Shown: positions 11,716 to 61,573 of the stretch, piece by piece | How positions within the stretch are numbered: the stretch's first letter is position 1 | Layout: every line of letters begins with the position of its first letter | NCBI GenBank assembly: GCA_905178155.1 | Contig: CAJINV010000001.1 | Span: 667,643 to 731,642 of the forward strand | Length of the DNA: 64,000 nt | Reading direction: 5' to 3' | Origin: Amoebophrya sp. A120 | Lineage: Eukaryota > Protista > Dinoflagellata | The notes under the pieces: model-generated | The model's database searches: none | Seen by the model: the letters and a program-made list of their open reading frames with translations, nothing else | What the model was told of the DNA's origin: nothing | Translations under genes and position numbers: made by a program

Positions 11716-14700
11716 ATGGTTTCCTCTTCCCTGAGTGTGACCGGCGGCCCGGCTCCGGTCCGGGGAGCAGCTGGATCCTCGTTTCACTCACCGCAGCAGC
11801 AGATGCAAAAATCCTGGAGCAGCACCAGTGTATTCGACGAGACGCATTTGAGGAGTTCTTCGACCATGGAAGGCCAGCATACAACCAGCCGATTTTCGGC
11901 GGGGTCCACCTTACCAAGCTTAAGCCTGAGTCCGCGAACCACCCGGATCGCCACCTCCTTCCACACCGATTCCACCGGGTTCCGACTGCCCACGCTGTCC
12001 TCGATGGAGCTAACGACCACGACCGGGGGTAAAAGACGACACCAAAGGTCCAGTTCCACCCATTCGCACTGGACCTCGGAAAACTCCGGCTTCATAGCCG
12101 GGCTGCCGCAGTCTCGACACGGCACGAGACCCGGAAAGCGGGGAGGCGCGCAAGGGGGGTCGCCGCAAGAAGCACACCGGTTGGAAATCGCCAGCCTGAA
12201 AAACCAGTTTGAGAAGTATAATTGTGTGGCTGCTATCAGATCTACGTATAGAAGTTTTGCTGTTCTTGTCAACGTAAAAGCATGGCTGCTCTGTTTTATC
12301 CTTTTTTGATCAGACGTTGGATCGTGTTGCACCAGCATCCTCACTGTATACATAGACAAATAAACACGACAGCAACGTGAAATGGATTGCAAACACCACG
12401 GAGCGGTTGCTCGGCCACGACGACCACCAAGACCACCACGGCGGGAGCCCCGACCACAAAGGCGGCGATGCCGGCCACGGCGCGATCTCGAAATCGCAGG
12501 AGTTTCTGAACCTCCGCGGTCAGTTTGGCAGCATGCGGGAGCGGCTGGAGTACTTCCGATTCCATAAGGCGTTGGAACCAAAACTCGCCCCCATGAAGGA
12601 GAACTTTCTCTGCCCCTCGCAGTATTTGAAGGCGAAGGAGAAGTCCCCGCGGAGCAACGCCGTTCTGAAGAACACGAAGCCGGTATTGCAATGAAAAATG
12701 CCCCCACCCCCGAACTTGGGAGAATTTGTATTGCAAACCTTTCCAAATGAAACGTTCGCCGTCTTGCATCTATCAGCATCACAGGTTTCCAATCGTGAAT
12801 AGCAAAACTTTGTATCGCCAGAGACTCCAGCAAGAGCGGCGCTTGTCATGCAAGCGATGCGATACACGCCTAGACTCTGCATCAGAAAGAATCGTACTCC
12901 TTTCATGCATGACAAAAAAATTTCATTTGGAAACTTCGCATCACAAATTTTTGCAATTTTAGGAGTGGGGGTCACTTTTCACTGCAATAGCCGGACGTGA
13001 TTCTCAGCTACAAAAAGGAGAACCGGGTGACGAAATACTTGGAGCAGGGCCAACTGTGGGAGGAAAAAATCAAGGTGCGGACAAAGTGGAAGTTATCCAC
13101 AGTAAAATTCCCGTACACGACGTACAAATGCGGTTTCTGCATGACAAAACTGGGCTTCGTCGATCCTAGTGTAGCATGGCAAGTGTTCTTACACTCCAAA
13201 TTGGTGAATAAATTTGTGATGCATCTTGTACAGACATGTACGGGGAATTTGTATTGCATAGAAGCGGCAGAAGCACCGGCAGTTCCGGCTGGATACCCTG
13301 TACTCGCTGCGGAAAAAGCAAATGCACTACCCGATCCTATCAAATGCAAATATGTCTGGGTTCGGAAACTTGTATTGCTGAGTTGTGAATAGGGAATTAT
13401 CTGTAATGCAAAGTCAAGCATGAGACATATTTGCGCTGCTTAGTGTAAGTGTTGCACTTTCCGCATGACAGGGTCGCTTCTTCTTCTTGGACACGCACCA
13501 CAAACTCTTCAGTTATGCCAAACAAGCATGACAAACCTTGCATCCTTCCAGACTCAGACATATTTGCAGTTGATAGATCCTCGGCAGCACCCACTTGATG
13601 CGCACGTTGGACGTGGACGCATGGGAACTGCAGGGTCTCTCCCCGGACGAGTCCGCGGACGAAATGCTGCGCCGGATCCTGGTTGGGGTGGTGTTGTACA
13701 AATTCACGCAGAATTGCGACGAGATCCTCCAGAACTCGGAGAACGAAACCTTTCTCACGCAGTTCCGGTCCACCATGAAGGAGAAGCGGCGGCAGCGGCT
13801 GCTGGAGGAGGACCCGGACGCGCTCGGGGGGCAGGGACTGCGCTATCAAGATGAAAAATCCCCCCTCGTCCGCAAACGGACATTTGTGTAGCATGATTTG
13901 TTATCACAAATCGCGTTGTCATGCTAGAAGGGAAGTAGAGATGCGGACAACTCTAGAAGTACCTACTGGCAGGGCGGGAAAGCCTTGCGTCTTCAGCATG
14001 ACAGGAAGCTGCAACTACAAGCACGAAGCAGGATAACAAGTTGCCTGAAAACGAGGCGGCATCTGCGTCGCTTGGCCTTCTAGCAATACAAACTACGACT
14101 TGTGTACGCGAGTCCAGCAGCACAAACTTCCTCTTCGATATGGGGAGGGGGGACTTTTCCTCACAATATGCGCCCGCCCGGAGAATCCTCGACAGACGAG
14201 GAGAAGCACAGTGCGGCGGACCTTATCAAATGCAGATATGTAGTCTGGGTCTGGAAACTTGTGATGCAAGGAAGGGAACCTCAGGGAGCGCACTGCAATG
14301 CGCTGCCACGCATGACAAGTTTTTCCTTGGTTCTGAGTTGCGTCCTGCGCATGAGAAACTGCGTTTTTGCATGACAGGCAAGAGGAGCAGCTCATTGCGG
14401 CCGTGCAATACAACAGAGCTGAGCCATGCCAAGCTAGCATGACAAACCTCCCAATCTTCCAGACCCAGACATATTTGCATTTGATAGAGCTGGCGGTGCG
14501 GCAGAAGAACAAGCTGCGGTATCTGCGGTTCAAGATGGCGCTGCGGATCGCCGTATCAAATGTAAAAATGTCTGGGTCTGGAAAAGTGTAGACTTGTCAT
14601 GCAGATTTTCCATGAGCCATGAGGTCTGGAATGCGGGACTTAGCGTGACAGACTCTGCGAGGTCTCTGCCATGCCTACCCTGCATGAGAAACTCCCTTCT

Positions 14701-16031
14701 AAGTTGGTCAAAAGTGTACAGCTCTTGGCACTCATGCAACACAGATTTTTGCATGCTTCAGATTTACCATGACAAGTTGCAATCTTCCAGACCCAGACAT
14801 TTTTGCATTTGATACGCCGTGCGCACCTACCGGCGGATACGGAAGGCCCGGATTCTGTACTCCACCATGCAGACCTTCGCGAGTAAAATGCTGCACTGGA
14901 ACACGATCTTGGCGTTCCAGGGGTTCAACAAGAAAACCCGGTTAATCCAGCGGTTCTGGCGCGACTGCCGGATCGACATCAAAGCCAAACTGAAGCTGTA
15001 CCTGCAAAAGGCGAACAAATTCGAAATGCGGCACCACCGTCGCGTGTTCATCGACCGGCACGGCGGCGCGGTCAGTCCCCCCAGTCAGGCGCAGCTGCGG
15101 GCACTGTTGATTCCGGAAAAGGACCGATTTTTGTTTATCACCATGGAACTGCGGGCGAGAAGGTAGTGAAAAGAAATCAAGTAGCTTGTTGTTTTCAGCA
15201 AACAAGTTCCCTGTCGATGTTGTATTTATTAACCCTGTCATCCGGGATGACAATGTTCAATTTCTATGATCAATCTTCACAGTATGGGATGATCCCATAC
15301 TGTGAAGATTGATCATCGAAAATTGATTGCTCCCAACATGGTTTCACTGTCCTGCCCCTGGGGGTTTATTGCTTGTTTAGACTGGTGGCTGTTTTGCCAT
15401 CGCAAGCAAAGGGGAAAAAGCGACCGCGCTGGCCATCTTACACACAGCTAGGTGAAGAGACAACAAGAATCAGTCTAGTACTAACTTACTCGCACGACCG
15501 AAATGTAATCAAACTATCGCTGGACCACATCATTACAAGTTCAACAGGTACCTGTCCCTGACCGGTCTGGCGGAGTACCGTCGCGATTGGCGTGACTACG
15601 AGGAGCAGGTGGAGAAGTGGCGGCAAGCGCGGTACGCCGCGAAGCTGATGGGCAGCGAGGTCGGGGCGATGCCGTTTCCACCACCGTATCCGATCTCCTA
15701 TCCGACGGAGAAGGAAATGCCAGACGTGGTGGAGCGGTACATGAACATTTTTATGCACCGCGCGCTGAAGCGGCTCGGCGACTTTACCGAGGAGGAGAAG
15801 CCGCAGCTGTTTCTCCGCTACACGAAGGAACTCGCGGAGCGCAAGCCCGAGATGCTCGCGGATGACGATGCGGGGGACGGGGTTGACGGCGTGAATGAAG
15901 TTTCGCTGGAAACGCTGTTTCTCGTGCGTCTCCGGCTGGACGAAGCACCCGTGATTCCGGACTTGCCCGTCGCGCCGAATCAGGAGGTCAAGAAGGTGAA
16001 ATACATGACACGCGGGACGGAAGCCTGGTAA
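11716..16031 (+). CDS. Hypothetical basic protein, 9 exons (11716-12215, 12373-12683, 12995-13093, 13266-13337, 13581-13843, 14174-14223, 14492-14553, 14820-15162, 15548-16031)
   Basis: One continuous frame after removing 6 introners and 2 GT-AG introns (12216-12372, 15163-15547). Confidence 0.75.
12684..12989. mobile_element. Introner, B2 subfamily
   Basis: TATTGCAATGAAAAATGCCCCCAC / GTGGGGGTCACTTTTCACTGCAATA, DR GCCGG, close sibling of 38491-38798. Confidence 0.9.
13094..13260. mobile_element. Introner family F
   Basis: TATCCACAGTAAAATTCCCGTACA / TGTACGGGGAATTTGTATTGCATA, DR GAAGT/GAAGC. Confidence 0.85.
13338..13575. mobile_element. Introner family A
   Basis: TATCAAATGCAAATATGTCTGGG TIR, DR GATCC, joins YPI|LGST. 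Confidence 0.9.
13844..14168. mobile_element. Introner family B
   Basis: TATCAAGATGAAAAATCCCCCCTC / GAGGGGGGACTTTTCCTCACAATA, DR TGCGC. Confidence 0.88.
14224..14486. mobile_element. Introner family A
   Basis: Family A TIRs, DR GACCT/GAGCT. Confidence 0.9.
14554..14814. mobile_element. Introner family A
   Basis: Family A TIRs, DR CGCCG, reverse-complement sibling of 59890-60151. Confidence 0.92.
15266..15316. repeat. Perfect 25-bp inverted repeat with 1-nt spacer, inside a canonical intron
   Basis: ATGATCAATCTTCACAGTATGGGAT-G-ATCCCATACTGTGAAGATTGATCAT. Confidence 0.95.
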
Positions 16032-17055: not shown

Positions 17056-18891
17056 ATGGATCCGACAATGGACGAGGAGCAGGAAGGAATTCCGATGGAC
17101 ATTAGGAACTGCAAAAGTATCGTACTAGTAGTAATTGCAATACAAATTAGCCCAGCATGACAAATGGGATTTGTCATGCTGCTTTGCCTTGGGATGAAGA
17201 TTTGTATGTAATGCATGATTGCAATTACTACGAGTGCGATACTTTTGCACAGGATAGACATGGGCGGGAACCCAAACATCGGCACCTACCCTTACGTCGT
17301 CGTGAAGGGCATCCCAACATACCAGACCGACTACCAGGGGTTTGGCCAGAAGAAGATGACACACCAAAAAATGAACGCGATTGTACTAATATGAGTGCCT
17401 TCTTTTGTTTCGCTGCTCTTGAAAAATACTGTATTTGTCGCGCTTTGGCCAGCGCGCTTCGTAGTTGTCAAACATTTATTCTTTTCTGCGGTGCCTTGAA
17501 GTGCGAAGTGCAATACAAAATTTTCACATACAACAGGAGGATGATGCAGCCCGAGAGCACGAGCTGAACACACAGAAGCTGATATTGTAAGGAAAAATCC
17601 CCCCTCCCCATATCGAAAAGGTATGTTTCCGAAAATTTGTGTTGCTGATTTGAGACCACAAATCACGTCTGTCTTGCAAGAAGGCAAGTGTAGAGGCTTC
17701 CGCGCCATTATGGAAGCGCTTTGGCATGCTGTTGCGCCTAGGGGACAGCCGTTTGTAATGCTAAGCAACTAGACCCAAACGCCCCTACCTAGGCCGAAGA
17801 TCTGGCTGCGCTGCCTTACTGCAAGACAAATCGGATTTGTGTACGCAAATCCAGCATNNNNNNNNNNNNNNNNNNNNNNNNNNNNNNNNNNNNNNNNNNN
17901 NNNNNNNNNNNNNNNNNNNNNNNNNNNNNNNNNNNNNNNNNNNNNNNNNNNNNNNNNNNNNNNNNNNNNNNNNNNNNNNNNNNNNNNNNNNNNNNNNNNN
18001 NNNNNNNNNNNNNNNNNNNNNNNNNNNNNNNNNNNNNNNNNNNNNNNNNNNNNNNNNNNNNNNNNNNNNNNNNNNNNNNNNNNNNNNNNNNNNNNNNNNN
18101 NNNNNNNNNNNNNNNNNNNNNNNNNNNNNNNNNNNNNNNNNNNNNNNNNNNNNNNNNNNNNNNNNNNNNNNNNNNNNNNNNNNNNNNNNNNNNNNNNNNN
18201 NNNNNNNNNNNNNNNNNNNNNNNNNNNNNNNNNNNNNNNNNNNNNNNNNNNNNNNNNNNNNNNNNNNNNNNNNNNNNNNNNNNNNNNNNNNNNNNNNNNN
18301 NNNNNNNNNNNNNNNNNNNNNNNNNNNNNNNNNNNNNNNNNNNNNNNNNNNNNNNNNNNNNNNNNNNNNNNNNNNNNNNNNNNNNNNNNNNNNNNNNNNN
18401 NNNNNNNNNNNNGAAGGGTTGCCGGGGTCTCCCTCGCATCGGTTCTCGATGTCGGGTGTGAGTTTGTGACTGCGGGGGCAGTGGTTGGCTTAGGTTTGCG
18501 GAGTACATCTGAAAAGAGGCTCCCATTCCTTCTTCCAGGTAGCGATCCTAGATCGCCGCCACGCGGAGCCACCCCCGTATTTCACCCCCAGGGGGTTGTG
18601 GACCTGGCAAAACCGATGAGTTCGGGCTGCTGACTGTTCCACTTCTTCCGAGCGCGATCATGCTACGCCTCACGCCTCACGCAAATCCAGCATCAGAAGT
18701 TTCGTTTTGATATGGGGAGGGGGGATTTTTCCTGTTGATAGCTGAGACAAAAGAACAAGCCAAAGGAAAGAAAAGACCTCAGTCGGTACGACGGGAAGCC
18801 AAAAATGACTGCTGACGGTATTACTGAAAAAAGCGCACTACTTCATTCACTTCCTGAGGTCACTGCAATCGTCTCGATTTCTATAGTGTAA
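17056..18891 (+). CDS. Short hypothetical protein, model uncertain
   Basis: MDPTMDEEQEGIPMD|MGGNPNIGTYPYVVVKG and NTQKL|RQKNKPKERK are joined across two introners. The donor of the middle intron and the 3' end are unresolved. Confidence 0.4.
17103..17256. mobile_element. Introner family D
   Basis: TGCAAAAGTATCGTACTAGTAG / CTACGAGTGCGATACTTTTGCA, DR GACAT. Confidence 0.85.
17583..18740. mobile_element. Introner family B with a nested insertion and assembly gap
   Basis: TATTGTAAGGAAAAATCCCCCCTCCCCATATC / GATATGGGGAGGGGGGATTTTTCCTGTTGATA, DR GCTGA. The body matches 34909-35230 except for the insert. Confidence 0.88.
17858..18412. other. Assembly gap (Ns)
   Basis: Run of N. Confidence 1.
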
Positions 18892-22036: not shown

Positions 22037-22301
22037 TATCCTGTGTAATAGAAATGTCCCCACCGCAGAGGAAAGAGAGGGTCTGTGAACTCCGCATGAC
22101 AAATCCGCGTGCTTAGTTTCGTTGTGCCTGACTGTAGAAGCCGCACCACAAGTCGATCATCAATCTCATGTAGCATTAAAAATCCGATGAAAACACCATG
22201 TGAAAGATGTTCCTCATGGGGCTGCGCATGAGAGACATCCTCACCATGTAAGTAACTACGCATGACAGCTCTGAGACGTGGGGACGTTTTTACACAGGAT
22301 A
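22037..22301. mobile_element. Introner, B3 subfamily, outside any evident CDS
   Basis: TATCCTGTGTAATAGAAATGTCCCCAC / GTGGGGACGTTTTTACACAGGATA, DR CGATT/CGACT. Confidence 0.85.
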
Positions 22302-25341: not shown

Positions 25342-26855
25342 TGCAGGTGAATGATGTAGATCTGAGAAGGACTCCTAGTGCGAAGACACAATTAATTGTT
25401 CACTTTATTTTTAAAATGAGAGTTAAAAAATATTTATAGATAAAGATTATATGATGAATTCTTAGTATATTAGGGTCTATTTTCGCTTCGCTTTCTTCTC
25501 TTCGACCCAAAACGACAGGACAAGCCTACCAAACCTCGCAGTTCGCACCGGCTCCAGTGATCTACTCAAACTTCTATTTTTATTTTACATTGCAGTATAA
25601 GTTCTAGGTATAGGTTTTGAAGAGTTACATATGTAAAAAACTAAAAACACAAAAACAAAACGTTCAAACTTACACCTTCAGAAGTTCAAGAGACACAAGT
25701 TCCTGCAGAAATAGACTTTTGGTTTTGCTGTTTTCACACAAGCAAGCTCAACTTTTCGCAAGCACGACCTTTCGTTTTCTCTTACAGAACTCCGCACTCG
25801 CAGCAGGCGCAAGTAGATTTCACTTTTTCAGAAGCAACAGCAGCGTTTACTTTTTCAACATCTAGAGCAACTTTTGGACTTTCTCTTCGACTTTTTAACT
25901 TTCGAAAAAAAAAACTTTTTCCTAGTTCAGAAAAACAGCTTTCCGGAACGTTTAGTTTTTCTCAGGCTAACGAGGCCAAAGCTGCTGTAGCCACCTAGTA
26001 TTTTTTTTAAACTGAGAGTTAGTGAGGTGAGAGTTGGCGTCCCCTTCTCTCCCCTTGCTGGGAATCACTACTACTACTAAACTAGCTCTAACATCGTGAG
26101 AGGAAGGTAAGCCCTTCAAGCGGAAACCACGACTCCAACACTAACAAACAAACAAACTACAGGTTTTGAAGAGGAAAAAAGTGAATAAACATCCCCGCAA
26201 AGAACATGCGGAAAAATGTGGGTGCTCATTGTGTTCAATTTGTTTATACTAGGCTGTAGTTGAGGTATCTATGGGTGTTTACGTTTACCAAAGCCTGACG
26301 TTTTGCGGCCGCCCGTTGATCGAGAGGGAGCAGAAAGATCTCTAGACCTGCGAGTGTTTTTTTTGTCTTTATTACTGCAAGAGGAGGGATTTTTTAGTGA
26401 GTAGAGAGTGAGCAAAAATGGGATTTCTGACGCAAGCGTTAGCGTGAAGAGGATCAACCTGCCGTGCGATGTAGAGAAAGAGGTTTTTTGGTGTGCTGCT
26501 TTATTTCTTCGTGCAGCTTGACTGAGCGTACTTACAACTTGATTCGCTGCAGAGCAAAGCCAACTGTTGAGGTTTACTTTTGGCTTTGCTGCAGCTCTGC
26601 GTGCCGGCGCCAGTAATTTCGTACTCAAAATTGTGATGAAAAATCAATTTGTGCGGTCGCGAAGAAAAGGTCGGCAAATCTGCCGGGACGAACCGTGATT
26701 AAAAGATGGCGTTTGCAGTCGAGGGCTGTGTCGAGCCAGACGCCAGCACCGTTCGTTTCTCCAGTCGAGAAGGGGTTCGGAGCAAGAATTGCAGCCAGTC
26801 GTCACGGTCCAGACATCAAATTTTCCCACGCACGACCGGGAGCAGTGACAACAAG

Positions 26856-29800
26856 ATGCTGTCACTTGTAGAACCCTCGCGGCAGGAGGACCTGCGTTTC
26901 TTGAGTGACGCGTCGAGTCTTGTTGACAGCAGTAGGGGAACAATGCATATGCAAGATGAAGCTGATCATGAAAATAGCTACAACGGAAGTCGTCAATCAG
27001 CGGGCGGAGCTGCATTTTCACCCTGTGGTCGTTTAGGGTTAACACCAGCTGCATCAAGGACCTCCGGTTGTACACTACCTGCAAAAAGGAGAAGTAGAAA
27101 GAGTAGAAACTTACTCCTGTCCAGGACAGCTACCGCGAGCTGTCTCGTCTGGACTGCCGGAATGGATCTCCACCAGTCCGTACGCGCCGACTCGTCGGAG
27201 TACCACGTGGACCTGACCTGCAAGGGCACGCAGCGGGAGTATATCCCACAGAAAAAAGCTGGCAGGGCATATTTGTAATGCAAAAATCAATACACAGAAA
27301 AACAAAAATCTGCCATGGGCGGCCTCATAGCATGCTATTTAGGATATGCAATACAAATTTGTTTGTCAATTTATTTTTGCATTACAAATATGACCTGCAA
27401 GCTTTTTTCTGTGTGATAGAGTACGAGGGCTGCGAAATCGAGCCCTGCGAAGTGAAAACCTGCATGGACTGCGTCTGGTCCGTATCAAATGTAAAAATGT
27501 CTGGGTCTGGAAGAGTGCAAGCCTTGTCATGCACATTTTGCATGACCCACGATGTCTGTGATGCCTGCCCTAGCATCACAATTTTTTTGACGGCTTTCTG
27601 ATGCGTATCCTGCATGACAAGTGCCCTCTCCGTGTAGCACAAAATCGAATCCTCTTGCTGGTCATGCAACACAGATTTTTTTAGAATCCGACGACAGCAT
27701 CAGGAGTTGCATCCTTCCAGACCCAGACATTTTTGCATTCGATAGTCCGAATGGGCGCCGTATTCCGCCTGTACCTGCGAGGGCTTGCGCGAGCGCCACC
27801 GAGTCATCGCACAGCAGTCCAACAGTTGCGGGAAACCGTGCGACGGTACTACTATACTAGAAACTCGCTGTTGTGCTTGGCGGCGTCCGTGCTAGTAGAC
27901 CACGGTGTGCTGACCACTTCTAGAGGAGACTCTCTAGTTGTGTTGTAACAAGCTTGCTCCTGCTCATATGCAGCCTGTCGTGCTGCAGTTCGTAGTTATC
28001 GGTTGGTCAACTGCAGCACTGCACTAATATGCAGAAGATGCCAACAAGTAGAAGTATCTTGCAAAACCCTCAACACCTCCTCAGCGGTGATCTTCGAACC
28101 ACCACTCTCTTTGTCTACTTATCAGGCCCGAAAGTCGAGACTGCCACTTGCACGCCGGACTGTCACCACAATCCGCAGGACTGCGTGCTCTCGGAGTGGT
28201 CGAGCTGGTCGTCCTGCTCCAAGGACTGCGGGGGCGGGCAGAAAAACCGCACGCGCGTGGTGGTTACGGAGGCGGCGCATTTAGGCAAACCGTGCAGCGG
28301 CAGTCTGGTCGAGACCGAAGCCTGCAACGACGCGGCGTGCGTCGCCAAGCGGGACTGCGAACTTTCCTATTGGTCTTCCTGGGGGGAGTGCAGCAAGAGC
28401 TGCGGCGGCGGCCAGCAGAACCGCACGCGCACCGTGACGGCGACGGCGCTGGCGGGGGGGAAACCCTGTTCCGGCGGCCTGGTCGAGCTGCAGGCGTGCT
28501 CGCTGCCCAAGTGCGAGACGGACCTGGACTGCATCTGGAACGAGTGGCAGGAGTGGTCCGCGTGCTCGCGGTCCTGCGGCATCGGCTCGCGGGCGCGCAG
28601 CCGGATGATCGAGCAGGCGCCGCGGGGGCACGGCAAGCTCTGTATCCGATAAAAAAAAGCTGGCAGGGCATATTTGTAATGCAAAAATAAATACACAAAA
28701 AAATCCGCATTGCATATCCGAAACAGCATGCTATCTGGCTACCCATGACAAATTTTTCTGTGTATTTATTTTTGCATTACAAATATGCCCTGCCAGCTTT
28801 TTTCTCTGGGATACTCTGCGAGCCGCTGGACATGGTGGAGACCGCGGCCTGCGACATGGGCTTGTGCTATCCACAGAAATAAAATTCCTGTACACATAAA
28901 TACAAATATCGCGCCGGTTCCTGCATGACAAGAGAGAAGAGACTTGCTTTTGATTCTAGAAGTCACAGCATGGCAAGTCATGTTAGGTTACTCTCTAAGA
29001 TTGGCGAAATTTGTGTATGCATGTCGTATTTTTATGGGAAATTTGTATTGCATATGTGCCACGAGGCCGTTGATTGCTTGTTCGAACCCTGGACCAGTTG
29101 GGGCGAGTGCTCCAAATCCTGTCACGGCGTATTGATAATGTGCTGCGATGAACAAGATAGGTCATCATGTGATTACTATGGTGGATGCTAGATTGCGGTT
29201 GCCTCGCACCATCGACCGATCGTGAAAGCTTAATATTTCCAGAAAAAGAAAGGCATTAACGATGAAATCTGATTTCGAATCATTTTTCCTTCCCTTGACC
29301 ACTGCTACCAGGTCCAAGAGCGCACGCGCCACATTGCAGTGTACCCAGCGCACGACGGCGCTGCGTGCGAAGGGAACCTGAAGGAGCTGCAGGGGTGCAA
29401 CAACGAGGGTTGCATTGACGAATCGGAGAAGGTGCCGGTGAATTGCGAGCTGAGCGCCTGGAAGCCCTGGGCAGAGTGCTCCAAGAGCTGTGGAGGCGGG
29501 GAGCGTACACGGTCGCGCGAAGTGGTGCAGGAACCGAAGAACGGTGGGGACCCCTGCGACGGAGTGTTGGCAGAGATGGAGCCGTGCAACGTGGAGATCT
29601 GCCCCGAGGACGTCGTGCCAAAAATCGACCCGGTACTTACTCGCGCCGGGAGGCTTGCATGCTTCATTTTTGTGTCATGGAGCAGGAAGAACTAGAGCTA
29701 CAGATAGTTTTTGGTGGCAATATCATATGAAAATCCGACCCGATCATACACTGACTTGTGTTCTTCCATTTTTACCTATTTACGCACAACCAGGTCGACT

Positions 29801-32800
29801 GCGCCTGGAGCGAGTGGGAGAGCTGGGGCCAGTGCAGTAACAGCTGCGGGGTCGGGCAGAAGTTTCGCAAGCGGCGCATAGTCCAACTGCCAAACAACCT
29901 GGGAAAACCTTGTTCTGCGAATGACTCCATGGAGGTCGCGGAGTGCAATTTAGCATCGTGTTTGGGTAAGTCCGTGGTATTACTGTTTTAATAAAGCTGC
30001 TGCTTAAGATGCAGTGCCAAAGCCATTATTGTATGGGTATCCATTTTCATCATCAGCAGCAGCATCCATGTAGTTGTAGCGCATTTGTTTCTTTGATGAG
30101 CAAGAAAAACGAACTTTAACCGTTATTTGTCGAATGTTCTGTAGGGGCTGCAGAATATGCAAGTTTTTGTTCACTATCACTGCTTTGGAATCTTCATCAT
30201 CAACACTGCTACAGCCGTCGACTGCGTCTGGTCTGAGTGGTCCGCTTGGTCCGATTGCACGTGCAGCGGTCTGCGGGAGCGCCACCGCGAGATTAGCCAG
30301 CACTATGCGGGAGACGGTAAGCCCTGCGAGGGCGCAAAAGTGGAGACCAAAGAGTGCCATGCAGATTGCTACCCGGACCCAATAGACTGCGTTCTCTCCG
30401 GCTGGGCGGACTGGTAAATTTAGTACTTACTACCGGAGAAATTACTACTGAGTATCGACTTGGTGGAGCTCACGCTGTACCGAAGAATGCTGCAGCTGCG
30501 ATTCTTGTTTTGTTCCACAGCGTGTTTCTTTTTGTTGATCTTTACATACAACTCTCCCCTAAGTTGTACTCTTGTCTTCTATCCAAAGGTCGACCTGTTC
30601 CCATCCCTGCGGGGGCGGGCAGAAGAAGCGCACGCGGAAGGTAAACACCTTGCCGCAGTACGGCGGCAAGGATTGCGCGTCCGGATTGGAAGAGGTCGCG
30701 CCCTGTAGCACGGAGCCCTGCGAGCATCCCAGCGACTGCGTGATGGGGGACTGGACGGACTGGGGCAAGTGTTCTGCCACCTGCGGGGGCGGAGAGCAGC
30801 ACCGCGCGCGGAAAGTGGTGAAGGCCTCCAAGCACGGCGGCCGCCCGTGCAGCGACGAGACGAGCGAGGTGCGCGGCTGCGGCATGGACCCCTGCAAGGC
30901 CGCGGTGGACTGCCGCTGGGGCGAGTGGTCCGAGTTTGACGAGTGCAGCAAAACGTGCGGCGGCGGGCAGCGAACCCGAACCCGCCACGTCGAGACCAGC
31001 CCGCGGAACGGCGGCAAGCTGTGCGACGCCTTAACCACCGAGGAGGTGGCGCCCTGCAACACCGAAAGCTGCGAGGAAAAGCAGCCCTGTCGTGACGGGC
31101 AGTGGGGACCCTGGAGCCGATGGTAAGTCAAAAATTTTGAGGGGGTGTTGAAGAGAGTGACAGATGTTGAAAGTAGAAGAGTGTCTCATTGCGAATATCA
31201 AACTCATAGGTCGACGAGTCAACGAGCCCCTGGCTCCGGGAAACGAAAATCAAAATCGAAAACAAAAACAATCTTTTGTCTAGGTCTCTCTGCTCCGCTA
31301 CGTGCGGCGAAGGGTATCGTGTGCGGCATCGACAGGTTGGCGTTGAGCCGAACTACTGCGGTGCAGCGGCGCATGGCCAGTACGATCAGTACGAAAAGTG
31401 CAATCTGGGTCCCTGCAACACCGGAAAACAAGATTGCGAGTTTGGAGAGTGGTACTTACTACAACGTGCTGAATAAGTCTAGAGCAAGATTTTTACTGCG
31501 TCCACTAATCGTGCGTTTGCATAGTTTTCGTTTGGAGAAACCTCTGAAATGGCCCACGATGACGTCGGTACTACGAATCAGAATCTTGTAAAAAGCGAAT
31601 CCTAGAAATGAAATTAAAAAAAAAGCCGCATTATCTACTATGAAAATAAAGGCAAAAGTGGGAGCCCTGCAGCAGCAACTGCAATGGTATTCACACTCGC
31701 GAGCGGCTCGTAAGCCAATACGCCAAGGACGGTGGGTCCCCCTGTACGGGTGCCACGAAGCAAATAGGACCATGCAACACCGGACACTGCAAGTCGCTCG
31801 AGCCCGTGGACTGCGTACTCGGTGAGTGGTCAGCGTGGGACGAGTGCACCGCAGCCTGTGAGGGCGGCAGCCAGGCCCGGTCCCGCACAATCGTCGAGCT
31901 GCCGAAGCGCGGTGGTAAGCCCTGCGAGGGGGCGCTGGACGAAGTGCGGGCGTGCAACGAGGAGCGGTGCAGGGCGACGCAAGACTGCAAATGGAGCATC
32001 TGGGGCGAGTGGGGCAGCTGCTCCAAACCATGCGGGGGAGGTACTGAAGTTATTTCTTTTTATCGCATTTGGGGTGAGTTGGGTAGAATTTTTCAGCAGC
32101 GTGCCGTAGCGATGATTGTGCTACTGGCTTTGCGAAGATGAACCAATTTTTGCAAAGCGTCGGTCGGGAGGAGGAGTCAACAAAACTAGAAATGTAAAAA
32201 GAATTCTGGTCAACACATCGGCAGGCGAGCGCACGCGGTTTCGGCACATAATGAAGAACCCGCGGCACGGCGGCAAGGCGTGCGATGCGAAGGAGGCCGG
32301 GGAGATGGAACCCTGCAACGTGCACCACTGCGGGCACCGGGAGTACTGCGTGTGGAGCCACTGGGGCCAGTGGGGCGAGTGCAACAAGAGTTGCGGCAAG
32401 GGCACGCGGCACCGGCAGCGGAAGCTGGAGATCAGCATGAGCCACGCGGACGCGGAAACCGCGCTCTCCACGGGAATCTTCTCCGAAATAGCCTCGTCTT
32501 GGTCCTTATGCATTGCAAATATGTCAGGCTGGGTCTGGAAGCTTGTAATGCGCGTCAGTGAATAATAAGCATGCGCCATCCAGCATGACAGATTTTTTCG
32601 TGGCTCTGTGTTGTGTAGTCCGCATGAGAAGCTGCGTTTTTCCATGACAGACAACAGAGGCTGTGCGTGGCTACGCAATACAGAGCTCAGATTCATGCCA
32701 GACTAGCATGACAAGTCTCGCAATCTTCCAGACCCAGACATGTTTGCACTGGATAGTCTCCCGGAAATTTCTACACCGCGGACCACCTGGCCTTCACCTT

Positions 32801-32969
32801 CCTGATCGGCATGGCCAGCAGCGTCATGGTGCTCTTCGTGATTTACCAAGGTGGGGTCCGACTCAGGAGAAGATCACAGGGCGACGACGATTCGTCAGCG
32901 GCAGCACTGTTCCTCGACGATGACCGACCACTCGCGCAGCCATTCGCGATGGCGTCGCCGGTGGAGTGA
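26856..32969 (+). CDS. Thrombospondin type-1 repeat membrane protein, copy 1 (16 TSP1 repeats, TM, acidic tail)
   Basis: Repeated DCxxSxWxxWxxCSxxCGGGxxxRxR motifs across many exons; ends DHLAFTFLIGMASSVMVLFVIY..DDDRPLAQPFAMASPVE*. 5 introners plus several GT-AG introns. Start codon uncertain. Confidence 0.85.
27242..27418. mobile_element. Introner family C
   Basis: Long TIR containing AAAAAAGCTGGCAGGGCATATTTGTAATGCAAAAAT, DR GAGTA. Confidence 0.9.
27483..27744. mobile_element. Introner family A
   Basis: Family A TIRs, DR GTCCG, joins CVWS|EWAP. Confidence 0.92.
28643..28813. mobile_element. Introner family C (inverted relative to 27242)
   Basis: Long near-perfect TIR, DR CTCTG, joins GKL|CEPL. 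Confidence 0.92.
28868..29054. mobile_element. Introner family F
   Basis: TATCCACAGAAATAAAATTCC / GGGAAATTTGTATTGCATA, DR TGTGC. Confidence 0.85.
32507..32755. mobile_element. Introner family A
   Basis: Family A TIRs, degenerate DR GTCCT/GTCTC. Confidence 0.85.
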
Positions 32970-33861: not shown

Positions 33862-36800
33862 ATGAGAGTGGCAACAGCGCTGCTTTTGGCGGGTGCGACG
33901 TCCACACGGCGGGCCGCCGCGGAGGAGAAAGCGGGCTTCACCTGCGAGGGGACACAGAAGGAAACAAAAGTCTGCAAGCAGCCCGACTGCATGGGCTCGC
34001 CATGTATCTATCTTTTTCCCGATGTTGTAGACTGATGACAGCAGAAGTTCCGGTGTATTTGTTCGGCGTGCTTTCATAATGCATAAGCATATGTGCTTGT
34101 TAAAGTTAATATCTTCATGTGTCACTCAATCTATCATATCTTGACAAAACCAACGCGCAAAGATCGTGAATGAAATTCCGAATCGAAGAAACTCGTAAAA
34201 ACCCCACGACATCAGGCAAGGACTGCGTCTGGAGTGACTGGAGCCAGTGGGCGCCACCGACGTGTCTCGGGCTCTGTGAGCGGCACCGGGAAATAGTATG
34301 CATCGCAAATATGTCTGGGTCTGGAAACTTGTTATGCAAGTCTGTGAACAATAATTGCTCTGTCTCTGTAATGCGCCGCCAAGCATGACAAGTTTTTTCG
34401 TGCTTCTGTGCTGCGTATTCCGCATGAGAAACTACGCTTTTGCATGACAGGCAAGAGGACCTCTTGGTGGCCACGCAATACAGAGTGCAGAGTCATGCCG
34501 GACTAGCATGACAAATATCGCAGTCTTCCAGACCCAGGCATATTTGCATTTGATAAATAGCGGAGCACAACAATTTTTGCGGCGACCCCTGCCACGGCCC
34601 CATGACAGAAACAAAATTTTGCCAGCCGGACTGCGATCCCCCGCCCGTGGACTGCGAGGTATCGGAGTGGTCGGATTGGTCTCTCTGCACGGAGCTCTGC
34701 GGCGGGGGGCAAACCTACCGGGAGCGGAAAGTGAAACAGTTCCCCAAGCACGGCGGCAAAATTTGCAGCACGGACCTGACGCAGACCAAGCCCTGCAACC
34801 AGAAGAGCTGCAACACCCCGCAGGACTGCGTGCTAGGCGACTGGGGCGCGTGGGACACCTGCAGCGCGAGTTGCGAGGGGGGCGTGCGGAAGAGGAAACG
34901 ACACATCGTATTGTAAGGAAAAATCCCCCCTCCCCATATCGAAAAAGTATGATTCCGAAAATTTGTGTTGCTGATTTGAGACCACAAATCACGTCTGTCT
35001 TGCAAGAAGACAAGTGCAGAAGCTTCCGCTCCATTATGGAAGCGATTTGGCATGCTGTTGCGCCTAGGGGGCAGCCGTTTGTAATGCTAAGCAACTAGAC
35101 CCAAACACCCCTACCTAGGCCGAGGATCTGGCTGCGCTGCCTCACTGCAAGACAAATCAGATTTGTGTACGCAGATCCGGCATCAGAAACTTCGTTTTGA
35201 TATGGGGAGGGGGGATTTTTCCTTTTGATACATCGAGGCCGTGGCGATGTTCGGCGGGGTGCCGTGCCAGGGCGAGCTCGAACAGGTGGAGGAGTGCATA
35301 TGGGGCTCTCAAACGTTACATTCTCAACTGTTACATGATTTGTCATGCAAAAACGCTATCACTTTTCACAATTTCAAACCTTCTCCGCATGACAAGTTCT
35401 CGACACGCTAGATAGCATTGTAATCTGCTCCAAACCTGTAATGCAAAAGGAGCAAGCTTTTCCCTTTCACTTTTGCCATTCTTGCATTACAAATTTCATG
35501 TAACAGTTGAGAATGTAACAGTTGAGAGCTCCATAGTGCAACGAGCAAGCGTGCATCTCAGCAGTAGACTGCTCGTGGGGCGAGTGGGGCTACTGGAGCG
35601 ACTGCTCAGCATGTAAGTAGTATTCATGTGTTTCTTTTCCGGTTTTTCGGCTCAAGTACACAGTTTGAAGATCATTCTGTCATACTTGGGACTGTGTCGT
35701 GCTGCATGATCATACTAGCTTACAACTACACCTCCTCGTTTTCTACTCTACAGCGTGTGACGGTGGCGAGCAGACCCGCATGCGATTGATAGACATCGCG
35801 CCCAAGAACGGCGGGAAGCTTTGCTCCGTCGATATCGTAAGGAAAAATCCCCCCTCCCCATATCGAAAACGTACCCGTCTGAAAATTTGCGATGCGCATT
35901 TGCGACCTCAAATCCTGTCTGTCTTGCAAGAAGGCAAGTCCAGAAAGCGTTCCGCATTTTGCAGGCAGTTTGTGATGCTGTTTGGCTTAGAGCATACACG
36001 TTTGCAATGCTAGGCGCCTACGTCAAAACCTCTCGACTGAGGCTTGGCATATGCCTGCACTCCTCTACTGCAAGACAAATCTGAGTTGTGTATGGAAATC
36101 CAGCATCAGAAACTTCGTTTCGATAGGGGGAGGGGGGATTTTTCCTCACAATAGTCGAGGATATGGTGGAGGTGCAACCCTGCAACCGACTCCCTTGCAA
36201 GGGACCCTTAGGGACTTAGGGACCTGAGGTCCAGAAAGCAGCCTAAAACGAACTCTAAAACGCATGGTATGCTCGCAAAATGGCCGACCATTTTACCCCC
36301 CCCCCCATTTGGGCCCCCCCAGAGTGCTTCGGCGGCTTCGGGGCTTCGGGGTCCCTTGCCGTCACTTGCCAACAAGTGTGGGCTCTTGATGGTCGAATAT
36401 AGTTCGTTAGCCGATAGCGGATGCCACGGACAAGTGGCATCTAGGGGGCCAAAAATTTCCGCATGCGTGTCCTCCACGCGGGCGGCCCCTGGGGCGCTGC
36501 TGTCGTTATCCATCAGGGAAAGTTGAAGCGGGCACTTCGATTTTCCTTCGATGAGGTAAAGTTGAAATGGCCAACTCAAATTTCCTTCGATGAGGGAAAG
36601 TTGAACTTCAATTTTCCTTCGATGATGGAAAGTTGAAGTGCCCATTTCAAATTTCCTTCGATCATGGAAAGTTGAAGCGGCCACTTCGAATTTCCTTCGA
36701 TGAGGGAAAGTTGCAGCGGCCATTTCAAATTTCCTTCGATGGGGGAAGGTTGAAGCGGTCGCGTCGATTTTCCTTCGATGAGGGAAATGCGAAGTGGCCA

Positions 36801-51953: not shown

Positions 51954-52770
51954 GGGTAAAAAATAAAGTGAGGATATATAATTGAATTTTAACCACATGA
52001 TCAGACGGGCCATTTAGTTGTTCTAGTTGCACAATGAGAGAAAATACAGGACTACTCCTACGTAGTGATGATGGAGAAAATACAGTACTACTAGTCCTGA
52101 TGTGGTAGTAGAAATTATAGGGAGGTGCGGCTGCGAGGAGAGCAGTTTGTCCCTTCAATGACAATGAGGAATTCAATGCCCTCGATGCGATTATCATTAT
52201 TGCCGCTGCACCAGCAGCTGTTTGATGAGTGTACAAAAGAAATAAAACGTAGTATACTAGTAGATCATGCGCTTCTCCTCTCAAATTTATGGATGCTTTG
52301 AATTGACGAAGGCGAACTCCCACGACTGGCGCAACTAGATTCGGCTCGGCGAATATGAATCAGAATCTTCGTCATATTGATTTTAAGTACATACACCTAC
52401 ATGCGAAAAATCCGAAGCAACAGTGGCAGCTGTCAAAGGAGGGTAAGAACTACTGCTGTTCTTTTTCCGAAACTTCGCTGTCCAGTTTTGGTGACGCGAG
52501 GTAGCAAGTGCTTGGCGCAATTTTCTCCCCGAAGGAACGTTGTTTCCACCTTTATAGCAACTACTCAAGGACGAGAAAGCGACGTGCCTGAGGGAGAGAG
52601 CAAGAGTACCTGCAGGTCTTCTGAGGTTGACATCAAACCTTTCTACATGTAGAAAGTTAACGCTACGTCTGTATTCGTGGGCGTGCTCTTATCTTGCTTC
52701 CCGCTTCGCATTTATTGTACGGTACCGCAAAGTAGATAGAAGCAGAAGGGGATTTGGAAAAATCAAAGTC

Positions 52771-55359
52771 ATGTCCTGTGTACCCAGGCGGGGGCCGCAC
52801 GCCGCGGCACGGCTGCTGTGTGCCACCTACCTGACCCAGGCATTGCTGGGCCCTTCCAGTCTGGTGGTTCGCGGGATCAAGCCCGTGACGCTGGTGGAGA
52901 AGACAAAAACTACGACAAAATTGGCGAAGGAAGAGATTGAGCCGGTTACCCTGGTGCACAAGAAAACGACGAAATTGGAGTCTTCGGCCGAGGGAAAAGC
53001 GGAGAAACGGAAAGCAGAGGAAAATAAAGCGGAGATCAAAAAAAAGGCCACGAAAGAGAAAAAGGCGGAAGAGGGCGCAGACGCTGAGGAGAAAGCCGAG
53101 GAGAAACTCGAGGAGAAAGCCGAAGAAAAAGCCGAGGCTGAGGAGGGCAACGAGGCATCGGCGGAGGAAGAGGTCTATCAAATGCAAAAATGTCTGGGTC
53201 TGGGAGGTTGCGAGATTTGTCATGCTTGTCTGGCATGACTCTGAGCCCTGTGTTGCAAAAACGCAGTTTCTCACGCGTAGTACGCAACTCAGAACCATGG
53301 AAAAAACTTGTCATGCTTGGCAGCGCACTATAGTGAGTTCACTATTCCCTCTCTTGCATCACAAGTTTCCAGACCCAGACATTTTTGCAATTCATAAGGT
53401 CGAGGAAAAAGCGGACGCCGAGGAGGGCAATGAGGCCTCGGCGGAAGAGGACGCCGAGTCGGAGAACCAAGCCTGGCGGGTCGCGGCGAAACAAGAGCGG
53501 GTGGACAAGGTGAAAGCAAGATATGCATTGTCGGACCGTGTCGTACTAGTAGATTTTCAACAAATGATCGCACTTTTCATTTTGTTCAAACTTGTTGAAA
53601 TAATTATCAGAATGAATGGACTTCGTCAACACGGTGGTTCACAACGAGGAAGCAAGAAGCGCATGATCTGTCATGCATGATCAACCCGTTTAATACTATA
53701 ACGAGTACGACGCTTTTGCAGTGGATCTATGACGCATGATGAGCAAAGAAGCGATCGAGGAGCGAAGCAGGAAGACCAAGGCGCAGTTCAAGTCGAGCCG
53801 GCACTTCTGCTACTGGACGGAAGACACGTACTTCAAGGAGGAAGACGCCGCGGGGAAGCACCAGCGGCGGGGCACCTTGGAGGAGCTGACGACGAAGGCT
53901 GCCTTATCAAATGCAACTGTGTCTGGGTCTGGAAGACTGCGCGTTTCGTGGGACGGCAGGTTTCTTCGCATGACCGAGGAGGTTTGGAATGCGGGCTCTT
54001 GCATCACAATCTTTTAGAGGGCTCGTCGATGCCTATCTTGCATGAGAAGCGTTGTCTTGATCGGATGATCAAAGACAAAATTGAGGAGCGCTTTTGCTGG
54101 TCATGCAACACAGATTTTTCTTGTCGACGAGACCTAGCATCACAAACTCGGTTTCTTCCAGACCCGCACATATTTGCCTTTGATATGCGTACGAGCTGTA
54201 CAAGGAGGTGCCGACCGTGACGGCGGACGACCTGGCGGCGCTGGTGACCAAGAAAAAGGCCGCCGTGGTGGTGTTTTTCGCAACCTGGTGCCCCTTCTGC
54301 ACGAAGGTGGTGGAAGAAGGCCAGGACGACGACACCCCGGCGCCGTACTCCGAATTTTGGGGCGAGGTGCACGACGACGACCTGTTGAAGGACAAGCTGG
54401 AAGTAGTGAAGTACGACGCTTCGATATCCAAGAAAAAAAGGTTGTTAGTGTAAATTTGTGATGCGCAACATGCAAATTGATTGCGCCTGTCGTGCTGGGC
54501 ATGCATTGTAGGGTCCATTCAACGGCGTTTTCCCGTACTATCTGCGCATGACAGGTTTTTCCTGTCATGCGAGAGATATTTGTGATGCTAATCCTCCAAG
54601 AAAGTTACACCCACAATCTTTTTTTTCTGGATATTCGAACACCGAGGACTTGGAAAAGGTGCCGAAGGAGTTCGGGCAGATCAAGTTTTTTCCAAACGTG
54701 AAGGGCCTCACGGCGGACGGCAAGCTGAAAGAGTTTGACAACGACCCGCGCTCTATCCAAGAGAAATATGATACATAATGTCGGGGTCTGGATAGAAATG
54801 ATTTGACATCGTCTGTCGTGCAGTTCTTGCAAGTACATGTAAGTAGGACAGGAGGCCTGGAGTGCATGCGGAGCATGACAAATTCTGCGGAGCAGTGGCT
54901 TCACCTGTCTATAGTCGGCATGGATGAGGAACAATGCGAATGCCCTCTCTAGCAGACAAAAGTCGCAAGGTTCTTTTGCGGAGCTATGCAACACAGTTTT
55001 TTACCTGTTCCCCGCATAGTAACAGGTTTACATCACAGTTTTGCATCCTGTACTTCCAGACATCCGGGGATGAAGATATTTCTCATGCATACGCTCCTCG
55101 GACGAACTCTTCGAGTTCGGCAAGGCAGTGGCGGGCGAGGCCCAGGGCCCGAGCATGAAGTATGCTGTGCAAAAGTATCGTACTCGTATAAATGCATTAC
55201 AAATTTCCTCAGCATGAGAGCTGGACTTTGTCATGCTGTTTTACCTTAAGGACAAGACTTGTCATGCATAAACGCAATTAGTACGAGTGCGATACTTGTG
55301 CTGAGGATATGAAGGTCACCTTGACAATGACGGGCCGGAAAATGACGGGCAAAAAGTAA
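52771..55359 (+). CDS. Thioredoxin/PDI-like protein with signal-peptide-like segment and Glu/Lys-rich N-terminal region
   Basis: AAVVVFFATWCPFCTKVVE (CxxC), QIKFFPNVKG (cis-Pro loop-like). 5 introners and 1 other intron; stop at 55357-55359. Confidence 0.82.
53176..53396. mobile_element. Introner family A (inverted relative to 14224/34297)
   Basis: Family A TIRs, DR AGGTC. Confidence 0.92.
53905..54185. mobile_element. Introner family A
   Basis: Family A TIRs, DR TGCCT/TGCGT. Confidence 0.9.
54425..54633. mobile_element. Introner family G
   Basis: TATCCAAGAAAAAAAG / CTTTTTTTTCTGGATA, DR TTCGA. Confidence 0.88.
54754..55091. mobile_element. Introner, A-related diverged
   Basis: TATCCAAGAGAAATAT..GTCTGGA / TCCAGAC..ATATTTCTCATGCATA, DR CGCTC. 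Confidence 0.85.
55161..55309. mobile_element. Introner family D
   Basis: GCAAAAGTATCGTACTCGTA / TACGAGTGCGATACTTGTGC, DR TGAAG, sibling of 17103-17256. Confidence 0.88.
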
Positions 55360-58926: not shown

Positions 58927-61573
58927 ATGTCGCTGCTCCGCCGGTTCGCCGACGGCACTTCAGATTTTGGCACTTCCGTCCCATCAGCATCTGCCACAAC
59001 TAAAGCTTCCTCCTTATTGGATAGAGGAGTGGAAGCGTGGGCCGCCGCTTTTGCTCACGGACATGACGGACGAGTTGACGCGCAAGGTCAAGGTGCGAAA
59101 GCTGCCCTAAGTTTGCTGCACCTGGACGGCCACGCGGGGCTGAGCGAAGAGGGCGCGACCCGGGTGCTCCTTGGCACGGCGCTGACCTGTTCCGTACTCG
59201 CCGCCGTCGTGACGCAACGGCAGCTGGTGAAAAGTACCGTTTCGTCCTGTCTTTTCGGAAAGAGTCCCGTTCCTGGGGAGGGAGGTGAAGAAGAGGAAAA
59301 TGACCAACTCAAGAAATCGACCGCACCGACGGGGACAGTCTTAATGAATCAAACGACTGTGACATCACCTCCTGTCGATGTTGTTGACACCAGTACTAGC
59401 AAAAGCGCGCGCGAGAAAGAGACCACCGCGGTGTGCGCGTTGAAGTGGCGCTACGTGGTCGCGTTTTGGCTGGCGACCGGGGCCGACTGGCTACAGGGCC
59501 CGTACGTGTATGCGCTGTATGACGCGTATGGGCTGACGCACTACCAGAACTCCGTCCTGTTCATTTTCGGATTTGGCAGCTCCATGCTGTTTGGCGCACT
59601 GTTCGGCGGGTGGGCGGACCAGAGTGGGAGACGAATATCCAGGAAAAAAAGTGTGTAAGTGTAACTTTCTTTGAGAAACAGAATCACAAATTTGCTCTAC
59701 ATGACAGAGAAAACCTGTCATGCGTGGCTTGAAAGGGAAAACACAGTTAAAAAGAGGACTTCGTGGCTGTCTGGCATGACAGGTGTAACTTTGTTGCATG
59801 TTCTACAACACAAATTTACACTTAGCTTACACAGTTTTTTTCTTGCATAACGAAAATTCGCCCTGTACTACTGCCTCCTCTACGGCCTCTATCAAATGCA
59901 AAAGTGTCTGGGTCTGGAAGATTGCAACTTGTCATGCTAAATCTGCAGCATGCAAAAATCTGTGTTGCATGATTACCAAAAGTCGGCCAGTTTTGACCAA
60001 GTCGGGAGAGAGTTTCTCATGCAGGATGGGCATTAGAAAGGTCTCGCAGAATCTGTCATGCTAGGTCCTGCATTCAAGACCTCAGGGGTCATGGAAAAGC
60101 AGCATGACAAATCGCGCACTCTTCCAGACCCAGACATTCTTGCATTTGATAGCCTCGGCTGCGCGACCAAGCACTTCGCGAACTTCTACGTGCTGGCGCT
60201 GGGGCGGGTGCTCGCCGGCATCGCGACCAGTCTGTTGTACTCCGTATTTGAGTGCTGGCTCGTGTGCGAGGTCTATTCGGAAAAAGCGATCCGCAACAAG
60301 GACGACGCGCTCGCGGACGTCTTCAGCCTCGCGATCTTCGGCAACTCTATCGTCGCGATTCTGATGGGCTTCTTGGCGGAGTCCGCCGCCAATTTGTTCC
60401 CTCTCGTGAAACTCGCGGACTTTCCGTCCGTGGATTTGTACGCGGGCCACTACTGCATGCCGTTCGACCTGTCGGCGTTTTTTCTGCTGGTCACGGCGGC
60501 TTTCTTGTCGCTGTGTTGGACGGAAAACTACGGGTCTGGAAAGGAGCAACGGGTTCTGTCCGAGGAGGAAAAAACACTTCCGAACGAGAAAACCGCATTG
60601 CTGGCCAAGGCGCAGCGCCAGAGCGGAGAGAACAAGGACCACAGTAGTGACTATACCGTTTCGTCCGGCGATTCGGACGCGCCCACGAAAGCCGACACGT
60701 CCGACACCGGCAGTAACAGCAGCGGGGCAGGAGCTCGTCCTGCAAGTATCAATAACACAGCGATTGAATTCCGCGAGCAAGAGGAGGCGGACCACGAAAA
60801 GCAAATAGCGCATCCAGGCGGACCCTCCTCCTCCTCCGCCGCGGATCATGGCAGTGCTGGGGCGCTGCTGGAGGCGTTCGAGGTCTTGTGTACGAACCGG
60901 AAAGTGCAGTGCACGATGCTGCTGTGCAGTTTCTTCGAGTCCAGCATGTTCATCTTCGTGTTTCTGTGGACGCCGGCGGTGATGGCCTTGCACCCGAACG
61001 AGAAGACGCACCCCTTCGGCCTGATTTTCGCCCTGTTCATGACGGGCTGCATGCTGGGCTCCTGCGTGTTCCAGATTCTGCGCAACGACTGCAAGTTTTC
61101 GGTCTTGCAAATCGCAGGCGGACTCTTCGCGGGGTCCGCAGTCATGCACTTCCTCGCGGCCGGTCTGGTCACGGAGTTTGTGCACCTGACGGCGAGCTTT
61201 GTGGTCTTCGAAATCTGCGTCGGGGCGTACTGGCCGATGATGAGCATTCTGAAGGGTCGCGTGGTCCCCGAGCCCCACCGGGTATGCATTGGAAATATGT
61301 TTCTGGGTCCCGTCTTCTGGAAAATCTGTGATGCGAGATCTGTGATGTCATACAAGATTCAGCAGGGCAAGTCGCGTGATTTTATCCAGACTCAGGCATA
61401 TTTGCATTTGATACCGCGCGGCGCTGTACAACTTCTTCCGCGTGCCGCTGAACTTCATCGTTTGCGGGATTTTGCTGCTCGACGTCTCCGTGACTACCGG
61501 CTTCTTGTTCACCAGCGGACTCCTGGTCTCCAATCTGTTCCTTCTTTTACGCAAAGTGAAAAAATGTGTGTAA
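58927..61573 (+). CDS. MFSD5/MOT2-family MFS transporter (molybdate-anion transporter-like; exons 58927-59635, 59855-59889, 60157-61282, 61419-61573)
   Basis: ADWLQGPYVYALY, GRVLAGIATSLLYSVFECWLV, FESSMFIFVFLWTP, VPEPHR|AALYNFFRVPLN; the family motifs are restored by removing 3 introners. Confidence 0.92.
59636..59849. mobile_element. Introner family G (inverted relative to 54425)
   Basis: TATCCAGGAAAAAAAGTGTGTAAG / CTTACACAGTTTTTTTCTTGCATA, DR ACGAA, joins GRR|KFAL. Confidence 0.9.
59890..60151. mobile_element. Introner family A (inverted relative to 14554)
   Basis: Family A TIRs, DR GCCTC, joins YGL|GCATKHF. Confidence 0.92.
61283..61413. mobile_element. Short introner, family A
   Basis: 131 bp, family A TIRs, DR CCGGG/CCGCG. 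Confidence 0.88.

Follow-up and report, generated by a model that had tools for sequence, protein, structure and literature searches.

Introners in both orientations within genes of Amoebophrya sp. A120, and a candidate splicing signal in their mirror-image ends

The 64,000-nt stretch of Amoebophrya sp. A120 DNA analysed here (contig CAJINV010000001.1, positions 667,643 to 731,642 of the forward strand; henceforth the window) carries 35 introners, transposon-like introns of 11,072 bases in total, which occur in both orientations within same-strand genes and mostly lack GT-AG boundaries. In the published models of four host genes they are, with one exception, omitted as the element plus one copy of its 5-bp flanking repeat. 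Probably, such introners are removed from RNA by a relaxed spliceosome using a start signal which is present in both of their mirror-image ends.

The elements start with TAT and end with ATA (three of the 35 have one altered terminal base) and possess inverted ends of about 30 nt (terminal inverted repeats, TIRs); the 5-bp repeat flanking them is perfect in 27. Their end layout, TAT followed by seven variable bases and AAA, is that of the introners known from A120, whose definition includes a direct repeat of 3–5 nt at the boundaries (PMC7789003). As a control, the procedure used to call introners made 141 calls in 40 real loci and none in 199,609 bases of these loci after shuffling. In the following, L is the length of an element and L+5 that of the element plus one copy of its repeat; introners are named by their first position.

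Opposite siblings within same-strand genes

An earlier note on this DNA claimed four sets of siblings in reverse-complement orientation, all residing in + strand genes and all restoring the reading frame upon removal. The nine introners concerned were found where the note had placed them, each with TAT at the start and ATA at the end, and with a perfect 5-bp repeat in all but 14224, which has one mismatch:

14554..14814, introner of the ~262-nt family, repeat CGCCG/CGCCG, reverse to 59890, omitted as L+5 in GSA120T00010876001
59890..60151, introner of the ~262-nt family, repeat GCCTC/GCCTC, in the MFS_5 transporter gene, gap-free versus homologues
14224..14486, introner of the ~258-nt family, repeat GACCT/GAGCT, the mismatch setting the junction register (k≥3, see below)
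34297..34555, introner of the ~258-nt family, oriented as 14224, in a second TSP1-repeat gene (predicted frame only)
53176..53396, introner of the ~258-nt family, reverse to 14224 and 34297, repeat AGGTC allowing GT-AG (predicted frame only)
54425..54633, introner of the ~210-nt family, in the thioredoxin-like gene GSA120T00010885001
59636..59849, introner of the ~210-nt family, reverse to 54425, in the MFS_5 gene
27242..27418, near-palindromic introner, in the TSP1-repeat gene GSA120T00010879001
28643..28813, near-palindromic introner, sibling of 27242 and better aligned reversed, in the same TSP1-repeat gene

When the cores were aligned after removal of 35 nt at either end, every pair scored higher after reversal (scores are given forward/reverse-complement, with z from shuffles). 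Introners 14554 and 59890 gave −17/236 (z 3.2/24.5), their identity over the full length being 85% when reversed; 14224 and 53176 gave −51/143 (z 1.3/19.6), 34297 and 53176 −43/125 (z 1.4/17.1), and 54425 and 59636 −21/76 (z 3.1/12.9). The weakest pair is 27242 and 28643, with 85/131 (z 11.2/15.7) and, after trimming of 60 nt, 9/47 (z 4.2/9.3), because these two are near-palindromic. The repeat of 53176, AGGTC, makes an ordinary GT-AG intron possible in one register, which the earlier note had missed; its pair is, therefore, no evidence for non-canonical splicing in both directions.

Four exons of the window match Amoebophrya sp. A120 protein models at 100% identity, and these models have neighbouring locus numbers:

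11716..16031, + strand, GSA120T00010876001 (P0011), no Pfam match; six introners, two GT-AG introns
26706..32969, + strand, GSA120T00010879001 (P0017), TSP1-repeat protein; five introners, eight GT-AG introns
53736..55217, + strand, GSA120T00010885001 (P0132), thioredoxin-like; three introners omitted, one read into
58927..61811, + strand, GSA120T00010887001 (P0001), MFS_5 transporter; four introner-derived introns

The A120 gene models were built from transcript alignments (PMC7789003). Mapping of the four models to the window showed that 18 of 19 introners are omitted at exactly L+5, among them both members of three opposite-orientation pairs; seven of the nine paired introners are introns in the models, the exons of which match the window exactly. 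Removal of the element with one copy of the repeat opens long frames on the + strand, in which Pfam finds MFS_5, TSP1 and, weakly, thioredoxin, and alignments with homologues are gap-free at four of five TSP and four of four MFS junctions, i.e. the introners are absent from these homologues at the protein level. For the two remaining paired introners, the exon following 34297 matches TSP1 on the + strand and nothing on the − strand, and the host of 53176 is indicated by a restored frame of 298 aa, which has no Pfam match, together with the codon score on the + strand. The location in + strand genes and the frame-restoring removal thus stand as the note had described them. The sole retained case is the following:

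55161..55309, introner of the ~150-nt family; the GSA120T00010885001 model reads into it and stops

This introner lies near the C-terminus and may reflect either retention or mis-annotation. Positions 26706-41762 hold tandem TSP1 (spondin-like) repeat genes dense with introners, closely related homologues of which occur in A25 and in other dinoflagellates; between TSP1 exons lie 13 tandem copies of a partly palindromic 39-bp unit (36515-37022).

Orientation balance and mode of spread

A scan for the end motif of the main family, covering 12 of 64 parts of the sequences, yielded at least 167 loci (425,496 bases with overlaps), all of them on contigs of a second, related assembly, JACKZZ01, which is not assigned to strain A120; all JACKZZ01 counts given here refer to these loci; among the longest BLAST matches listed, the elements are about 70–93% identical to those of the window. 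The loci contain 308 unique elements, compared to none in shuffled DNA, and the 5-bp repeat is perfect in 251 of them (the caller tolerates up to two mismatches). Strand was assigned with a codon model trained on the exons of the window, which is right for 16 of 17 modelled elements when one gene at a time is left out. Flanks are available for 283 of the 308 elements, the best frame is open across the L+5 junction in 266, and 187 calls are confident; with 32 more assigned by agreement within a locus, 219 stranded elements were obtained and 89 were dropped. Pfam matches occur in 4/56 of the frames predicted to be sense and in 0/56 antisense frames, a thin but concordant check of the strand calls. 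Within the window, the codon model favours the − strand for the flanks of 22037-22301, against the rest of the stretch.

Orientation-neutral occurrence is general across the families sampled. Clustering of 242 elements of 130–400 nt (30 from the window) gave both orientations in 17/17 families at a strict cut-off and in 11/11 at a loose one, with no inconsistent edges, and the orientation counts, taken from the loci only, do not deviate from 50:50 (χ² 5.41, df 11, p 0.91). Close pairs, 140 in number, divide into 70 oriented the same way and 70 opposite. Three opposite sibling pairs lie inside single open frames and so need no strand model at all (3/11 opposite versus 4/12 same-orientation). 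Only five of the 219 copies would be harmless if retained.

TIRs, a 5-bp target duplication and the 50:50 orientation together argue that the elements spread by DNA transposition, a view which the earlier note had favoured and which was in print already (PMC7789003, PMC12130899); they would be non-autonomous DNA transposons mobilised by a transposase. No autonomous partner was found here. The long element at 3665-5421, of 1757 bp, has the ends of the main family, is flanked by a perfect 5-bp repeat and carries internally a 109-bp tandem repeat in three copies, and its excision as L+5 leads to an open frame of 944 aa; it contains no long internal open reading frame (ORF), its ORFs not having been scanned against Pfam. 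At 17583-18740, an element of 1158 bp with ends of the ~324-nt family spans a 555-base assembly gap and is possibly a longer or autonomous copy, while 279-327, 694-785 and 51266-51440 are fragments or one-ended remnants with subterminal motifs and without a matching repeat. Searches for more element DNA or an autonomous element gave no matches in viral contigs (three patterns) or in prokaryote genomes.

Boundaries and the reading of the ends

The flanking repeat leaves six possible registers for the exon junction (k=0–5). GT-AG is available in any of these in only one of 34 window introners (53176) and in 11 of 184 JACKZZ01 elements; the 17 intact introners omitted in the models offer neither GT-AG nor GC-AG nor GA-AG, and any of the three, or AT-AC, is found in 28 of the 184. 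The bases of the target repeat match the codon background, with no significant preference at any position (p 0.12–0.98). Since the interiors work either way and the target repeats have no base bias, any removal signal must lie in the mirror-image ends, and orientation neutrality limits it to about 30 bases per end. The earlier note had sought it in all symmetric parts of the element, which is supported for the mirror-image ends. Matching direct repeats seem not to be essential: one aged introner is omitted in its model as the element plus 5 despite three differences in five repeat bases. The introners informative for the register, besides 14224, are:

13094..13260, introner, repeat GAAGT/GAAGC; the model retains the right-hand fifth base (k≤4)
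32507..32755, introner, repeat GTCCT/GTCTC; the model retains the right-hand fifth base (k≤4)
61548..61744, aged introner with TAC start; flanking repeats differ in 3/5 bases, modelled intron is the element plus 5

The three mismatched repeats in models bound the register (k≤4 for 13094, k≥3 for 14224, k≤4 for 32507). The aged element permits k=3–5 and has AG exactly at k=4, where the intron would read TT…AG; it may represent an introner on its way to becoming an ordinary intron. At k=4 introns start N-T-A-T, and in the modelled host genes all of the ten ordinary donors start GTA. The nine commonest non-canonical boundaries reported for A120 all have T at +2 (PMC7789003).

In a symmetric search, 21 copies with one altered terminal base were found (19 from the loci, two from the window). 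The 5′ bases T1, A2 and T3 are altered 0, 2 and 6 times, their 3′ mirrors 7, 4 and 2 times (p 0.016 for the outermost base; 2 versus 11, p 0.022, for the outer two). Given random orientation, this difference points to selection which follows transcription, and what it protects is the would-be donor position +2; judged by these substitutions, introner ends appear to be read directionally. Insertion phases are distributed 107:59:53 over the 219 elements (p 6e-6), i.e. with the usual phase-0 excess at k=4, which local sequence explains only in part (p 0.015); a phase bias without matching bias in the target sequence differs from the proto-splice-site explanation given for Polarella. At TIR position 21, the 150-nt family has an A-to-G variant in the 3′ arm only (8:0; e.g. 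17103-17256), a candidate asymmetry which permutation did not bear out (p 0.18).

A120 encodes nearly all spliceosomal proteins as well as U2, U4, U5 and U6, while U1 was not detected in that survey (PMC7789003). On the favoured reading the 5′ cut would fall one base before TAT, so that the intron starts N-T-A like the G-T-A donors of the host with a relaxed first base; the mirror-image ends would offer N-U-A as a donor on both strands, to a spliceosome accepting any base at +1. For A25, the elements of which start TTA, N-T-A predicts introns beginning with the first T. The 3′ cut would fall four bases past ATA with no need for AG, its position perhaps set by a constant spacing from where the stem ends or from a branch adenosine within the terminal ATA. 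There is about an even chance that splicing in A120 removes these transposons precisely, anywhere and either way, by a symmetric N-U-A end, without G at +1, AG or a detected U1, plus a measured 3′ cut. If so, insertion into exons would be nearly cost-free and the end of the transposon would be the splice code, which implies either a spliceosome rewired to the end bound by the transposase or a second, non-spliceosomal machine for RNA splicing.

Several observations weigh against removal by a relaxed spliceosome with a fixed register. The case for splicing comes from published transcript-based models, one of which reads into 55161; the JACKZZ01 strands come from a codon model right for 16 of 17 elements in the window. 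T at +2 may be an artefact of the aligner, as BLAT slides gaps towards GT-AG. The end asymmetry is uncorrected, comprises 21 copies, is unreplicated and was recounted on the DNA in which it was first noticed, and four of the strands in this count lean on neighbouring calls. Mismatches between the repeats follow the polarity expected of k=4 in only 18 of 30 cases, so that no fixed register is confirmed; third codon positions account for 25 of 42, the pattern to be expected if either copy can enter the mRNA, and among the mismatches the acceptor AG at k=4 was gained three times and lost three times. No branch-point motif stands out: YTRAY occurs in 100 elements in sense and in 119 in antisense, of 218, and in just two of ten canonical host introns. 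The remainder of the TIR shows no directionality, the 5′ and 3′ arms having 584 versus 623 deviations at positions 4–32 (p 0.32).

Alternative routes and known systems

From the occurrence in both orientations the earlier note had concluded that removal is guided by structure or by a protein, or takes place in DNA. A route in DNA or outside the spliceosome is not required, since two-way introners with ordinary splice sites are known and orientation alone, thus, cannot exclude the spliceosome; it is somewhat disfavoured in that the two ends seem to be constrained differently along transcription, which is not predicted by a purely symmetric process, be it in DNA or by cutting of a stem. A spliceosome-independent RNA pathway, with cleavage at the foot of the long terminal stem followed by exon ligation, of the kind suggested for euglenid introns, is an unlikely though serious candidate. 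In line with it, each of four folded elements has a predicted terminal stem joining its ends, sense and antisense strands fold about equally, neither end requires a dinucleotide, U1 was not found in A120 (PMC7789003), and circles are the excision product of those euglenid introns which have TIRs and target-like repeats (PMC11282704). However, selection for RNA pairing was not detected (G·U versus A·C, 263 versus 251; 132 of 242 elements fold better as the sense strand, p 0.23), the offset cut and the phase-0 excess match the habits of spliceosomes, and the protected end base is that required at a spliceosomal donor, although an endonuclease which reads direction is conceivable. Precise excision, by a transposase or through the repeats, from the DNA of some nuclei or life stages, like that of internal eliminated sequences in ciliates, is quite improbable: it would account for exact restoration of the pre-insertion state, full orientation symmetry and the transposon ends, but the elements are present in two DNA assemblies (that of the window and JACKZZ01), are omitted without matching repeats (61548), and show an end constraint and a phase bias which follow the direction of transcription. 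We know of no separate germline and somatic nuclei in Syndiniales.

That each strand has ordinary splice sites and a branch point of its own was raised in the earlier note as a counter-explanation; this reading, by which the introners would be two-way introners of the Aureococcus/Polarella type, is highly improbable and, by the register counts, largely refuted. There is precedent, 53176 offers GT-AG in one register, and 15% of the canonical introns of A120 have the same repeat layout (PMC7789003); against this stand the 0/17 intact modelled introners with GT-AG, GC-AG or GA-AG, the small fractions in JACKZZ01 (11/184 for GT-AG, 28/184 for any listed type) and target bases which match the codon background. 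A donor-like N-T-A combined with an acceptor-like T-A-N would moreover remove L+2, which is seen in no model. Splicing of this kind (donor N-TA, acceptor TA-N, gain of one codon), suggested by the boundary table of PMC7789003, was considered and rejected as all omissions are L+5; it would also create a stop at 27242, though none in the JACKZZ01 sample (0/219). Barely credible is the second counter-explanation of the note, namely that one orientation is unspliced or resides mostly in dead genes. The reading into 55161 would agree with it, whereas for three opposite pairs full-length models with conserved homologues leave out the one introner as well as the other, three opposite sibling pairs lie within single open frames, and selection against one orientation is incompatible with the 50:50 ratio.

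How Amoebophrya can do without GT-AG and a detectable U1 in removing most of its introns has been the question since 2021. The asymmetry of the introner ends would give a sharp rule, a cut one base before TAT and another four past ATA, and the reciprocal orientations of a family are natural controls for branch-point mapping. Lack of need for a special target, in which A120 differs from other two-way introners, would explain tens of thousands of insertions into exons. The A120 introners illustrate how splicing can render a transposon harmless to its host on a large scale.

Publications already cover the element class, the transposon-like way in which it spreads and, in general, two-way introners; the orientation-neutral and target-neutral behaviour in A120 appears to be unreported, no account of orientation having been found in the literature searched, which largely excludes subscription journals. 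The introners described for A120 by Farhat et al. 2021 (PMC7789003) are the same elements from the same genome, with TAT + 7 nt + AAA ends, direct repeats, a hairpin and families. There, the splice position was called variable and general mobilisation by a transposase was argued against; here, a uniform 5-bp duplication, TIRs of ~30 nt, 50:50 orientation and a candidate fixed register were found. Text and supplement passages of that paper do not treat element orientation, on which its figures may bear. The candidate filter of PMC12130899 demanded similarity in the same orientation, while the search in PMC9860276 permitted insertion in the opposite one. With miniature inverted-repeat transposable elements (MITEs), and with the family-38 element of A120 which has a Ginger-like integrase (PMC12130899), the elements described here share TIRs, a target duplication of fixed length, subterminal repeats and a lack of coding capacity in the short copies; as in MITEs, the duplicated sequence is variable and insertion takes place in either orientation.

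Introners that insert either way are familiar from other lineages; those of Aureococcus anophagefferens were reportedly treated by Huff et al. 2016. According to a review they have ordinary splice sites (PMC10228655), and in Polarella glacialis introner classes 1, 2, 3, 6, 7, 8 and 10 give introns in either orientation (bioRxiv 10.1101/2020.10.14.339549). As in A120, these introns derive from transposons, have target duplications, lie in either orientation and are biased in phase. In contrast, they carry or recruit G(T/C/A) and AG, need particular targets and favour one orientation, whereas the A120 elements are unbiased in their target bases and in orientation and mostly have no GT-AG.

The nonconventional introns of euglenids (PMC11282704) resemble those of A120 in their non-canonical ends, terminal stem, target-like repeats and likely origin from MITEs; they differ in being excised as circles and in a pyrimidine|purine boundary, and no selection for RNA pairing was detected in the A120 elements. 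In the non-canonical introns of Fritillaria borealis (PMC11282704, PMC13326754), for which no statement on orientation was found in the literature searched, transposon origin, TIRs, target duplications and mostly non-GT-AG boundaries recur. These introns prefer the boundaries AG-AC and AG-AT, and their removal is attributed to a modified spliceosome, the kind of route favoured here for A120.

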